Position numbers and translations under genes: made by a program. Of a stretch of DNA of 64,000 bases, positions 113 to 57,250 are shown one piece after another. The stretch's first letter is position 1. Each line of letters opens with the position of its first letter. The notes beneath the pieces were generated by a model. That model was not told where the DNA came from. It saw nothing but the letters and a program-made list of their open reading frames with translations, and made no database searches. This DNA comes from Octopus vulgaris (taxonomy: Eukaryota): positions 17,422,001 through 17,486,000 of the forward strand of contig OX597819.1 in the NCBI GenBank assembly GCA_951406725.2. Direction: 5' to 3'.

Positions 113-399
113 TACAAATAAATGAAAGAATGGAGTTGAACGACGAATTAACAAAATTCCTTTATTCTCGACATATGTTTCGAAGGCTGCATATTCCTAA
201 TTTCGAAGGAATAAGGGGTGCATTATGCCGCCTTCTCATCTTGATGCTGACATAAGTTCCTTGTTTTTCCTGATGAGAAGGCGGCATAATGCACTCCTTA
301 TTCCTTCGAAATTAGGAATATGCAGCCTTCGAAACATATGTCGAAAATAAAGGAATTTTGTGAATTCGTCGTTCAACTCCATTCTTTCATTTATTTGTA
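113..399. mobile_element. Fold-back inverted repeat (arms ~113-240 and ~272-399), PLE pseudo-LTR-like, ending at a (TA)n tract
   Basis: The arms are near-perfect reverse complements. The right arm contains a hammerhead and runs into (TA)n at 398. A further short inverted piece lies at ~458-482. Confidence 0.8.
257..355 (+). ncRNA. Type I hammerhead ribozyme with extended stem II
   Basis: Stem I TTCCTTGTTTTTC/GAAAATAAAGGAA; CTGATGA at 270-276; stem II GAAGGC...GCCTTC with internal GCATA/TATGC and TTCCT/AGGAA; GAAAC-ATAT-GTC at 331-342 (palindromic stem III, GUC cleavage triplet). Confidence 0.85.
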
Positions 400-1215
400 T
401 ATATATATATATATATATATATATATATATATATATATATATATATATATATATATATACAAATAAATGAAAGAATGGAGTTTGTATATATATATATATA
501 TATGAGGAGAGAGATAGGGGGAAGAGAGAAAGAATTGTGTGTGTGTGCAACCGTGTCTGTCCGTGTGTCTGTACATGTCTATAAGCTGTGAAAGTACGTA
601 AATGATACACAAACTAATAAAGTTCATAAAGCCTTAAACTCCATCCAATTTATTTATTTATTTATTTTTTTATTCATTCTATCGATTTTCATTAGCTTTT
701 TTTTTTTTTTCCTTAAGGTATTTTAGAAAATTAAGAATGAGTTTTTTTTTTTTTCTTTCTTTCTTTTTGTTAGATATCATTCAGTGATTGTACAATTATT
801 TATAAATTCAAACAAATCGGTCTCGCAGACAGCGTTTTGCGGCAAGTGAATTGCAAGCGCGCGTGCGCGTTTCTCTGAAAGTATGTATCTATGAATGTGT
901 GTGTGTCTCTACATCTGTTCTATATATTCATTTATGCCTATATTTAAGCATATAATGACCTCAATCTTAGACAGTTTCATAAGTTCCATATCCCCTACTA
1001 CAATGCACATCCTCACTCACTATCTCCACGCCCCACCATTTATAACATTTAACAACAAACATCACCCCGATATGGTCAATCCCTTTGCTAGAAATGTCAG
1101 CCAAATGTTCAGTAACCGTCACCTGCCCTTTCTAAAACATGGAAGGACACACTGAATAATGTAGATGTCTTAGATATACTATTAATGATATTGACGGTGT
1201 CAGCCCTCACATCAA

Positions 1216-1760
1216 AACCACCACCACCACCACCACCACCACCACCACCACCACCGCTGCTTCTTCCGCCACTGCCATATCTATTCTTACTACTATAACC
1301 TCCACCGCCTCGTAAAAACTCCAGTATCACTACCACAACCACAACTACCACACACTCTACCGACATCCTACTCCTCCTCCTCCTCATCATCATCATCAGC
1401 GTCTTCAAACTGAGACCTCAACCACCACCACTACCACCACCACCACAACCACCACCACCACCACCACCACCACCACCACAACCACCACCACCACCACCAC
1501 CACCACCACCACCACCACCACATGTCCACTATTAACCGCACACTCCCCGCCTCGTTCCTAAGGTTCTTCACCATTTCTAATACCTCGATAACCATCACCA
1601 CCACCACCACCACCACCACCACCAACAACAACAACAACAACAACAACAACTACAATAACAACAGCAACAACAACACTAACGCAGTCCCTTACGCCACCGC
1701 CACCCTCACCTTTACCATCACCACCACCACCAACAACAACAACATCATTACGACGATTAC
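1216..1760. repeat. (CAC)n/(AAC)n trinucleotide microsatellite cluster
   Basis: Directly visible runs. Confidence 0.9.
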
Positions 1761-2079
1761 TATTACCCTGTTACTATCACGAGCAATATTACATTTTCTT
1801 AACCAACCCATCCGTGACTACCCCGACCTGTTACACACTATTCTTTTATAAACCATACGGAAATGATATGAATGGAATGGTAGATGAACACCGTCACCCC
1901 TTACCGCCTCTACCCCTACCTATCGCCACCACCATCACCACCACCGCCTCATCCTTACCCCAAGTACTCTCCCCCCCGCTGCCACATCACACACAGAACC
2001 TCCTTCACTACTTATGTAATTCACGTGATGTTGAATGAGCAACTCTAATCAGCGGTGTGTACGTTTCTCGCTACATATA

Positions 2080-2600
2080 CATACACGCACGCACGCACAC
2101 ACACTTTCTGATGTACACACACACACACACACACATACATACACACAAACACACACACACACACTGATGTACACACACACGTATACATACACACAAACAC
2201 ACAAACACACACACACACAAACACGCACGCACACACATACTGATGTACACACACACACACATACATACACACAAACACACACACACACAAACACACACAC
2301 ATATACTGATGTACACACACACATACACATACATACACACAAACACACACACACACACACACACACACAAACACGCACGCACACACATACTGATGTACAC
2401 ACACACATACATACACACAAACACACACACACACACAAACACACACACATATACTGATGTACACACACACATATACATACATACACACAAACACACACAC
2501 ACACAAACACAAACACGCACGCACACGCACATACTGATGTACACACACACATACACACAAACACACACACACACACAAACACACAAACACACACACACAT
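2080..2600. repeat. Compound CA-rich minisatellite punctuated by CTGATGTA
   Basis: CTGATGTACACACAC recurs about every 55-85 bp. Confidence 0.85.
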
Positions 2601-54777: not shown

Positions 54778-55218
54778 TACTCTTTTACTCTTTTACTCTT
54801 TTACTTGTTTCAGTCATTTGACTGCGGTCATGCTGGAGCACCGCCTTTAATCGAGCAACTCGACCCCGGGACTTATTCTTTCGTAAGCCCAGTATTTATT
54901 ATATCGGTCTCTTTTGCCGAACCGCTAAGTAACGGGGACACAAACACACCAGCATCGGTTGTCAAGCAATGCTAGAGGGACAAACACAGACACACAAACA
55001 CACACACGCATATATATATATATATATATATATATATATATATATATATATATACAACGGGCTTCTTTCAGTTTCCGTCTACCAAATCCACTCACAAAGC
55101 TTTGGTCGGCCTGAGGCTATAGCAGAAGACACTCGCCCATGGTGCCACGCAGTGGGACTGAACCCGGAACCATGTGGTTGGTAAACAAGCTACTTACCTC
55201 ACAGCCACTCCTACGCCT
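54778..55218 (-). mobile_element. SINE family A, full length
   Basis: Reverse complement of family A. Confidence 0.9.
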
Positions 55219-55923
55219 ATATGAATGCTTTTGAGAATTATTTAGGTACTAGAATTCTAGAATCTTATTTTTAATCTTGAAACTTACCTTTGCGTTTCAG
55301 AATTTCTCTTAACATGTTAGAATTTCCCTTCGATTTTTATTATTTTCTTAGAATCTTTCTCAGGTGAGGACCACAATGGAGTGCTGCACCAACATCTAGG
55401 ACTGTGATGCTGCAACGAGCAGGGATCCTAGACCGCATCCATAGACCACCCCTTTCACTTGACTCAGCAACAAAAATAAATTCTCTTAAAAACCTTAGGA
55501 TACATGAAATTTTCAAATTCGGTAAAGGACCTTAAGTGAGGCTGCACTACGAAGTGGTTAGAGTGTTGGCTTCACAATTGTAAGTTAGTGGGTTCGATTC
55601 CTTGACCAAGATACATGTTACTCTTAGAATGGTGCTATATTTCACGTTGCTGCAAACTACTCAGATGAGAATGAGCCCTAGCTGAGTGTTGGCATTGACC
55701 CCGTAATCCTTCTTCACTCTCTCCAGCTGTTACATAATGGATGTTTTACTTGGTTAGGTCTTGTGGAAAAAGCCTGAAACAATCAAAGTACGACATTTAA
55801 AATCTCTGTAGAATTGAAATATTAGAACTAATCTCAGAATATCAGAAGTTATATGAGCGTTAGTCTTAAATATATTAGATTTCTTAATAGAATCTTTTCA
55901 ATGTTAGAGTACCAAATTTAGAG

Positions 55924-56297
55924 TACCAACCACATGGTTCCGGGTTCGGTCCTACTGCGTGGCACCTTGGGCAAGTGTCTTCTACTATAGCCTCGGGCCG
56001 ACCAAAGCCTTGTGAGTGGATTTGGTAGACGGAAACTGAAAGAAGCCCGTCGTATATATGTATATGTATATGTATGTGTGTGTGTGTTTGTGTGTCTGTG
56101 TTTGTACCCCTAGCATTGCTTGACAACCGATGCTGGTGTGTTTATGTCCCCGTAACTTAGCGGTTCGGCAAAACAGACCGAGAGAATAAGTCCTGGGCTT
56201 ACAAAGAATAAGTGCCGAGGTCGAGCTGCTCGATTAAAGGCGATGCTCCAGCATGGCCGCAGTCAAATGACTGAAACAAATAAAAAGAGTAAAAGAG
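55924..56297 (+). mobile_element. SINE family A, 5'-truncated
   Basis: Homology to family A. Confidence 0.9.
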
Positions 56298-57049
56298 TTT
56301 TTTTTGGAATTTGAAAATCTTCTTGTAGCATCACAGCATTAAATTTTAGTAAATGTAAAGTCTTCTCCGTATTGATTCTGAGAATTCTTCTTACATGCAT
56401 CTTTGCGTCTCCAGTTTGTTCCGTCTTTTGTTTATTTCTGTGGAGATAGCCTGAAGATATTCTCTATGGGTTCAAAATACGTCGTCCATTGCGTAAGAAG
56501 CAGCCTAGAGCAAATTTGGTCAAAGTGTATATGAAAATATTTGATTTCTGAAAAACAAAAACGTGGGATATTTGAAATGTGTGGGTATAAAATTTTAAGG
56601 TTTTAATCCGAGGGTGAGTGATAACACACGTATCACTTTTCTTACTACGGATCTCGCTTATATGTTTGCAATGTAGTGGGTCGGTAAAAAGATACCCACG
56701 TACAAGGTGTTGGTGCTAAACCAGGTGACGAGTAAATCGGTTCAAAAATAATTATAATCAAAATAATCTTACATATGTACGTACACACACACACACACAC
56801 GTTTTTATATGTATGATGTCTTCAAATCTATCAATGAAGCTATGTATGTATTTTGTACGTATATATGTATGTGTGCGTATATATATATACACACATATAT
56901 AGGTTATGAGAGGTAATGGTGGCAATAAAACACAAAGGTGTCAAGTAATGCTGAGTAAGTGCTTTGGACAGACTATAGTTAAGCTCCAGGTTCGGTGATT
57001 ATGCGAATGAGGAGTCCAACGTAGGTCATGTATCAGCATGCGTATATAT

Positions 57050-57250
57050 ATAAAAAAAAATTAACAGAATGAGATAAAAAGCCCAGGGCGGTGAAGATTT
57101 TAGAACTTACAGCTGTTTCCTGGATATTTTATATATCCCTTCATCGGAGACGGTGTGAGAAAATGGTTATTCTAGATAAGATATGAAATAGAGAGTGAAG
57201 TGGAGGAATGAAAATAGACGTGAGATATACATGGATATTGTATCTGTAGT
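57050..57250 (-). mobile_element. PLE-like terminus with decayed hammerhead
   Basis: Minus: CCGATGA (57141-57147)-AG-GGATA...TATCC-AG-GAAAC-AGCT-GTA (57108-57119); palindromic stem III; 3' end at a short (TA)n. Confidence 0.6.

Follow-up and report, generated by a model that had tools for sequence, protein, structure and literature searches.

Hammerhead ribozymes are already known from the pseudo-long terminal repeats (pseudo-LTRs) of metazoan Penelope-like elements (PLEs), for which the published text drawn on here describes a palindromic stem III, an extra base after A9, a covariant U3-A8 pair, many families per genome represented mostly by single motifs from truncated PLEs, and opposite-strand pairs 100–700 bp apart (Cervera and de la Pena 2014, PMC4209133). 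TA targeting, tails and inversions are likewise known for Hydra PLEs, as is an Octopus Hydra element, in the sections used of Craig et al. (2021, PMC8557442), and a link between PLEs and retrozymes has already been proposed in the available parts of PMC7229834 and of Li, Clavereau and Pollet (2026, 10.64898/2026.07.22.740005). Here we analyse a stretch of 64,000 nt from Octopus vulgaris (GenBank assembly GCA_951406725.2, contig OX597819.1, positions 17,422,001 to 17,486,000 of the forward strand; hereafter the window, numbered from its first letter), in which an initial annotation, made from the sequence alone, had reported about 20 hammerhead motifs from many families, nearly all associated with (TA)n tracts. 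The features just listed for pseudo-LTR hammerheads recur here; PLE hammerheads, TA bias and inverted insertions are already known, and the core of the finding is ordinary.

We consider it very likely that several PLE families that target (TA)n, together with one non-coding retrozyme, carry these motifs as type I hammerheads at their 3′ ends. Their number probably reflects reverse transcription that begins a short way downstream of the hammerhead and in most cases terminates early, which would make this end the part inserted most frequently. What the copies show is that the 3′ ends are fixed and abut TA, that 5′ truncation varies, and that head-to-head arms have different fixed end points.

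The 22 coordinates of the initial annotation correspond to 23 motifs (that at 50985 is a pair), each of which was read on both strands; the window is 37% G+C and dense in microsatellites. Defined by an accepted core (CUGANGA, U3-A8, U4C or U6) and stems I–III with zero mismatches, intact motifs numbered seven of 23 (270+, 21325−, 21425+, 29417−, 38213−, 38726+ and 50990−), six of them with the canonical CUGANGA; counting the variant cores, all seven have the three core parts (CUGANGA, GAAA and UH) and the three stems of a type I hammerhead. Shuffled sequence did not give a similar count: the intact descriptor matched seven times in the window versus a mean of 0.03 (maximum 1) over 30 block-wise dinucleotide shuffles, the strictest descriptor four times versus none (20 shuffles), and the one-deviation descriptor nine times versus 0.2, adding 21786−, 51409− and 51621+. 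The union of the intact and one-deviation descriptors places 10 of 23 motifs as intact or within one change. Ten more are decayed or truncated copies (~240−, 12600−, 21840+, 29153+, 33263+, 37908−, 43762+, 44124−, 51001+ and 57147−), whose families show the hammerhead layout elsewhere in the genome. The count of about 20 is to be cut back at three sites: 28470 and 28710 belong to a real repeat with a GAAAC-GGCC-GUA half that is not a hammerhead by definition, and 24956 is unsupported, with no stem I and no relative over the motif (two first-look candidates). Such first-look candidate numbers (2190, 1578 and 1511 in other cases) are not copy numbers, and exact-pattern counts are preferred where obtainable.

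At the Rfam gathering score there were no matches across the window; 38213 and 38726 reach 32.2 bits (E 6e-6) against RF00163, below the cut-off of 34, and microsatellite-driven microRNA matches dominate among the 150 matches listed in an Rfam E-value scan. Self-comparison shows that most motifs belong to head-to-head inverted pairs on opposite strands (109–403, 21175–21575, 28379–28801, 38009–38931, 50960–51031 and 51141–51906), so that a double hammerhead within one transcript is impossible for these pairs and the motifs are not independent. The many families of the initial annotation are upheld, at about 13 in the window, and the stem III palindromes that it named are in the sequence, with the exception of 21325/21425 (GTGC) and the 50985 pair (3-bp stem III, 8-nt loop), which have none. 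Overall, what it had observed is partly confirmed, and the interpretation that it offered is supported in part.

There is no PLE frame among the open reading frames (ORFs) of the window, and tblastn of the window with a Hydra-type frame was empty. The origin in PLE pseudo-LTRs that had been proposed is supported by two families, here called A and G2, whose longer genomic copies lead into ORFs for reverse transcriptase (RT) and GIY-YIG endonuclease. Family A is represented as follows.

1–240, minus strand: inverted arm of family A with the long 3′ end, its core at ~240 severed by the inversion; the arm extends ~40 nt beyond the left edge of the window and meets a (TA)n tract there.
237–397, plus strand: forward arm of family A; its short 3′ end is immediately followed by (TA)31 at 398–459.
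265–347, plus strand: intact type I hammerhead with a long stem II, stem III C-ATAT-G and a predicted cut after GUC at 342.

Positions 236–405 are 95% identical to the 3′ end of a genomic locus (L124) with an 833-aa RT/GIY-YIG frame. In long copies of the family the upstream DNA enters a GIY-YIG frame (PF01541, E 4e-4, below the cut-off). A protein search gave 11,609 candidates, of which 150 were scored, with 151 matches; the 11 loci that were read have open frames of 741–934 aa (some including read-in flank) with DKT, YRDD, SNH and YQC..YIG, most of them followed by a hammerhead. The element has a single ORF, an RT with DKT and the RW motif, a C-terminal GIY-YIG, CxxC (CALC/CGVC) and CxH (CLH/CMH) on either side of a conserved E and N; its hammerhead lies close to the 3′ end, and its copies are inserted in (TA)n. 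Hydra-clade PLEs, including Hydra-1_Obim, share with it the GIY-YIG, DKT, RW and CxxC/CxH features, the canonical hammerhead near the 3′ end, the (TA)n preference and the inverted 5′ copy, in the sections of PMC8557442 drawn on. Relative to the same sections, family A lacks the CxCX5C linker, has longer frames, an optional tail of ~150 nt rather than 30–40, and a hammerhead that differs from that listed for Hydra-1_Obim. The linker was found in none of 25 readable copies, which have an Asn-rich stretch instead, and is kept in 7/7 aligned homologues; because of this one absence we call family A, on its sequence, Hydra-type and not a strict Hydra-clade member. Its nearest proteins are 28–39% identical, the best named ones coming from Argonauta. 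Among its 3′ ends, 57/65 abut TA and 58/65 lie at about +70 or +220, and inverted pairs combine a short and a long 3′ end in 14/14 cases. Since PMC8557442, in the part used, ties the PLE linker to targeting, linker-less family A would be a counter-example to linker-directed TA targeting. Beyond the TA tract, positions 460–482 hold a 23-bp inverted piece of the short 3′ end, possibly an aborted priming event.

Three copies of family G2 lie in the window.

29299–29466, minus strand: 3′ end of G2, bordered by TA on both sides, whose hammerhead at 29417 has a CUGUAGA (U6) core.
37797–37975, minus strand: older copy of G2 with a CUGUUGA core at 37908 and decayed stems.
43730–43875, plus strand: older, decayed copy of G2 with a CUGUCGA core near 43762.

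CUGUNGA is common to all three, and 25 of the best 30 G2 copies reach TA at +107 to +115. Long copies (L286, L288 and L289) enter frames with DKG, YIDD, CX4CxxC and a GIY-YIG with Cys/His motifs; all of these frames are broken and no intact full-length one was recovered. By these motifs G2 is a Neptune-type PLE: Neptune-clade elements, in the part of PMC8557442 consulted, share the DKG, YIDD, CX2-5CxxC linker, Cys/His GIY-YIG and microsatellite bias, and differ from G2 in the latter's CUGUNGA hammerhead core and broken frames.

Exact matches to one 25-letter G2 pattern number 17,610 in its U6 form (reversed-pattern control, 0) and 226 in its A6 form, and position 7 among the first 100 matches listed is U in 41, A in 24, C in 20 and G in 15. 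An unbiased set was found by the downstream flank alone (25 distinct copies, six dropped for an absent core, 19 scored). In it U6 occurs in 19/19, which rejects post-insertion decay as its source; position 7 is U9/A6/C2/G2, position 17 is A13/U4/C2 and never G, and each other core or stem column is alike in at least 15/19. The letter at position 7 tracks the subfamily (surroundings 64–81% identical, 73–89% within a group), and the flanks of four A6 copies have distinctive features in common, which suggests an A6 subfamily within G2. This pattern of variation would fit a hammerhead under selection. Against a working U6 ribozyme stand the lower Mg2+ activity of A6 changes reported in the parts of PMC3088659 and PMC7151607 drawn on, and the G2 fold could be kept for protein binding instead.

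The core variants A6C and U4C of the same two sources are, like U6, natural changes at conserved core positions, and U4C recurs in family N of the window. As described there, phage A6C has low Mg2+ activity and prefers Mn2+; here U replaces A6 in at least 17,610 copies and several subfamilies. In the literature searched, A6C and U4C were found and no natural A6U hammerhead by title or abstract; the text of PMC4209133 seen here does not describe a family-wide U at position 6, and a U6 family was not met in that literature, whose coverage excluded a survey of PLE hammerhead variants and several supplements.

A young insertion of another kind holds two further intact motifs.

38009–38974, no single strand: young retrozyme with a 352-bp unit, the short end of its inverted arm at 38009 and the long end of its forward arm at 38974, both in (TA)n.

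Its hammerheads at 38213(−) and 38726(+) are canonical, with a 6-bp stem I and a 6-nt loop 2, and the predicted cut falls after 38758 on the plus strand. They were expected to be minimal PLE pseudo-LTR motifs, an expectation that does not extend to this pair: the hammerhead is of the canonical type, and what carries it is a non-coding retrozyme with a unit of 352 bp. The hammerhead has 439 exact copies in the genome (reversed-pattern control, 0), and the element has relatives that are 100% identical, with a 352-bp tandem period and up to eight motifs per insertion. The longest frame is 84 aa, in a tandem non-coding unit within the 170–400 nt of retrozymes. The predicted circular fold of −117.4 kcal/mol (z −7.9 versus 100 shuffles) is strongly self-paired, and for two copies of the hammerhead the minimum-energy structure is predicted to be the double hammerhead (−46.3 versus 2 × −20.8 kcal/mol). 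In 21 distinct insertions, 27 of 31 3′ ends lie at +173–175 or +216–220 from the cut site and 26/31 abut TA, the 11 5′ ends scatter, and 10/21 insertions are inverted, with a shorter and a longer end paired in 10/10. By its sequence and predicted fold, 38009–38974 is a non-LTR retrozyme, and its insertion footprint alone points to a PLE partner. Published metazoan non-LTR retrozymes likewise consist of tandem non-coding units of ~350 bp, each with a single canonical type I hammerhead, and share the self-paired predicted circle. The octopus element differs in that its insertions target (TA)n, are inverted at the 5′ end and have the two-site tail of PLEs; term searches of the available parts of PMC7229834 and 10.64898/2026.07.22.740005 for a tail, inversion or microsatellites turned up no such description. 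A second retrozyme family, at L136:2097–4770, has a 353–359-bp unit with five tandem and two inverted hammerheads; this locus has the same short and long ends in TA, and its unit can be aligned with that of 352 bp, the two sharing conserved blocks ahead of both 3′ ends.

The window holds 191 (TA)≥4 tracts, or 3.0 per kb versus 1.7 in an unbiased sample of sixty 10-kb stretches taken at round coordinates (600 kb of a 2.8-Gb assembly). A (TA)≥4 tract lies within 250 nt downstream of 20 of the 23 motifs versus 35% of non-microsatellite positions, a proximity matched by none of 20,000 draws; with one site per insertion the figure is 15/16. The exceptions are 21325− (1737 nt; ends at a CA/GT tract), 21840+ (581) and 28470− (274). 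The 23 window sites were picked by the initial annotation, unlike the 600-kb sample, in which TA is present within 300 nt for 16 of 32 motifs versus 19% expected, the misses including inner copies of a tandem array and one family far from TA. There is, then, enrichment near (TA)n in both sets; 'nearly all' describes the window and is too strong genome-wide, and not every hammerhead family targets TA.

The proposal that (TA)n tracts serve as landing sites fared well. The distance from motif to TA is fixed per family because the 3′ end of the element abuts the tract. At two loci (L043 and L062) insertions split an older repeat that resembles a short interspersed nuclear element (SINE) at its internal TA linker, which indicates that the TA target existed first, and different families are stacked in one TA tract at 29040–29505 and 50900–51900 of the window. 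TA tracts may have grown since insertion. The SINE-like repeat is itself very abundant, ~450 bp long with an internal TA/CA linker and 70–92% identity among copies, and self-comparison places it in the window as follows.

9218–9701, 14003–14510, 19296–19766 and 29467–29992, strand not stated: copies of the SINE-like repeat.
46002–46510, 54775–55222, 55924–56298, 57348–57829 and more, strand not stated: further copies of the SINE-like repeat.

One motif per 3 kb had been taken to imply a very large ribozyme load if the window were typical. The unbiased 600 kb hold 29 intact motifs versus 0.5 in shuffles, spread over 16 of the 60 stretches with seven in one array, which gives 46 intact motifs per Mb (bootstrap 24–78; tolerant descriptor 47 per Mb) and an estimated genome load of about 130,000 (68,000–217,000). 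A very large load is therefore retained, at about one intact motif per 22 kb; the window, with 109 intact motifs per Mb, exceeds the unbiased sample in motif density by a factor of about 2.3 to 2.6 and its tally includes relics, so one per 3 kb is not typical of the genome. The parts of PMC4209133 drawn on give ~9,000 hammerheads for Xenopus, 4,000 for coelacanth and about 2,000 plus 1,300 for Schistosoma, and those of PMC7229834 more than 6,000 for a coral and, for axolotl, as many as 120,000 retrozyme copies; the octopus estimate is far above all but the last, to which it is close. A 2026 repeat annotation of Octopus contains no occurrence of hammerhead, ribozyme or retrozyme.

How such insertions might arise is suggested by an Anolis PLE studied in vitro (PMC11167929). 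Its protein cleaves AT-rich DNA on both strands and extends each of them, complementary DNA (cDNA) is begun at two positions inside the RNA, which set the tail seen in the genome, and the hammerhead of the element needs the protein. By analogy, the RT-GIY-YIG protein would nick both strands of a TA tract, and each 3′ end would prime cDNA at one of two internal RNA start sites. Early termination would leave short 3′ fragments that include the hammerhead, and retention of both cDNAs would yield the inverted product with one short and one long arm. An enzyme of this kind would also produce the 352-bp retrozyme insertions, with tandem or circular RNA as template. In tandem source transcripts the hammerheads are predicted to cut as dimers through their palindromic stem III, and the isolated or opposite-strand copies of the window would mostly be inert by-products undergoing decay.

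Several observations weigh against this account. Only two of about 13 window families have been traced to a protein-coding element, A to a Hydra-type and G2 to a Neptune-type PLE, so that the link from each family to an autonomous PLE that the initial annotation called for has been drawn for these two, with about 11 others left to trace. The loci from genome searches are the best-scoring and hence youngest copies. No PLE sharing sequence with the retrozyme appeared by DNA similarity among 225 loci compared, the predicted G2 dimer is not a double hammerhead at its energy minimum, and the Anolis PLE inserts in vitro without need of hammerhead cleavage (PMC11167929). Finally, a family with intact hammerheads lies far from TA in the random sample (L144:2234, 2143 nt; L185:7744, 1458 nt).

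Could the motifs be chance matches in AT-rich, microsatellite-rich DNA, their link to TA reflecting how common TA tracts are? With 191 tracts in 64 kb, 13 of 23 motifs failing the descriptors, 24956 unsupported and no Rfam match at the gathering score, the question is a fair one; the counts of 7 versus 0.03 in the window and 29 versus 0.5 in 600 kb, the family-specific fixed distances to TA, and 17,610 and 439 exact copies versus none for the reversed patterns refute chance except for one to three sites, and as a general explanation we give it practically no weight. A closer competitor is that most families are free-standing non-autonomous mini-elements, like retrozymes or SINEs, and not truncated PLE ends. 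This is true of the 352-bp family, with its tandem arrays and 84-aa longest frame, and of the 359-bp family at L136; most A and G2 copies are under 300 bp, and 11 or so families have no traced source. The 5′ ends of A and G2, however, are ragged and extend into PLE frames, with no fixed short unit, and for most families we judge this explanation unlikely.

A further possibility is that insertion itself makes or greatly lengthens TA tracts, for example by telomerase-like repeat addition. PLE RTs are telomerase-related (PMC8557442, in the part used), and the TA run beside the insertion at L043 exceeds by far the length of the linker in a SINE-like copy that is uninterrupted; yet insertions fall within the pre-existing TA-rich linker of the older repeat, different families stack in one tract, and later slippage can account for length, which together make it distinctly improbable. 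Nor do we see much room for a host regulatory layer in which dispersed hammerheads cut intronic and non-coding transcripts genome-wide: the estimate of about 130,000 intact motifs would give it material to work with, whereas the copies decay like neutral repeats (13/23 here) and are single or on opposite strands, and a lone minimal motif went uncleaved in vitro in the portion of PMC4209133 consulted; the idea is very improbable. Early-terminated PLE 3′ ends and a PLE-written retrozyme remain the reading that we prefer.

A bolder combination we put forward tentatively, as possible and on balance doubtful: that the U6 core of G2 has been kept by selection over several amplification rounds, with drift at positions 7 and 17 and little change elsewhere, and CUGUNGA is a working natural class, probably activated by protein or by an ion other than Mg2+, and that one PLE enzyme primes both TA strands at two RNA sites, retrozyme circles included, with the linker zinc finger dispensable. 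The U6 family challenges the assumption that A6 is needed, and the linker-less Hydra-type family the assumption that the linker zinc finger directs microsatellite targeting. The short-arm/long-arm rule common to an autonomous element and a retrozyme leads to exact RT start sites, and with these mapped, in vitro experiments could address both how PLE inversions originate and whether retrozymes are mobilised by PLEs, as has been proposed. Neither a linker-less Hydra-type family nor the retrozyme insertion footprint was met in the literature searched, supplements lying outside its coverage, and on hammerheads of octopus Penelope elements it contained nothing specific beyond Craig et al. (2021).

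The remaining motif-bearing features of the window have no traced autonomous element.

12585–12635, minus strand: decayed hammerhead relic of family B, with one homologue in the 600-kb sample.
21175–21578, no single strand: head-to-head pair of family C with intact long-stem-II hammerheads at 21325(−) and 21425(+); 314 first-look candidates.
21683–21930, no single strand: old, decayed inverted pair of family D with cores at 21786(−) and 21840(+); eight candidates.
24950–25000, plus strand: unsupported hammerhead-like string that lacks stem I and whose motif is covered by no relative.
28379–28815, no single strand: inverted pair of family F, which keeps GAAAC-GGCC-GUA, from a family without the CUGANGA core.
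29064–29285, plus strand: 3′ fragment of family G1 between TA tracts, with a decayed core at 29153.
33240–33377, plus strand: 3′ fragment of family H between TA tracts, with a decayed hammerhead at 33263.
44040–44180, minus strand: 3′ fragment of family J with a short inversion and a near-intact hammerhead at 44124.
50941–51140, no single strand: inverted pair of family K sharing the start of the core, with intact 50990(−) on the short arm and 51001(+) on the longer arm.
51205–51881, no single strand: inverted pair of family M with a U3-A8 covariant core (51409−, 51621+) and short and long 3′ ends at TA.
57060–57170, minus strand: fragment of family N with a CCGAUGA (U4C) core at 57147 and stem III C-AGCT-G.

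The family C pair ends at (TA)n on the right and at a CA/GT tract on the left, and both ends of the family K pair are at TA. Families K and D both have U/U next to stem II; that this is damage was considered and rejected, published Hydra motifs sharing the layout. CCGANGA (U4C) cores occur in several families: at 57147 in the window, in the family of 29153 and in a homologue (L143) of 12600. Family F (457 first-look candidates) has hundreds of copies (28379–28815 and loci L227–L237) in which stems I and III are kept and no CUGANGA is recognisable, with the core in register in none of the 11 other loci read; it may be a PLE-like end that lost its ribozyme.

Other repeats and fragments complete the window. 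A minus-strand frame at 48515–49250, which we take to resemble the C-terminal end of a long interspersed nuclear element reverse transcriptase, had no Pfam match. At 59212–59760, also on the minus strand, lies a fragment of the Pif1 helicase 2B domain (PF21530, E 4e-12), likely a Helitron relic, adjoined by a tandem repeat of ~166-bp period at 59976–60653. A dispersed repeat of ~220 bp occurs at 8933–9153, 12828–13062 and 20258–20492, its copies 85–91% identical to one another.

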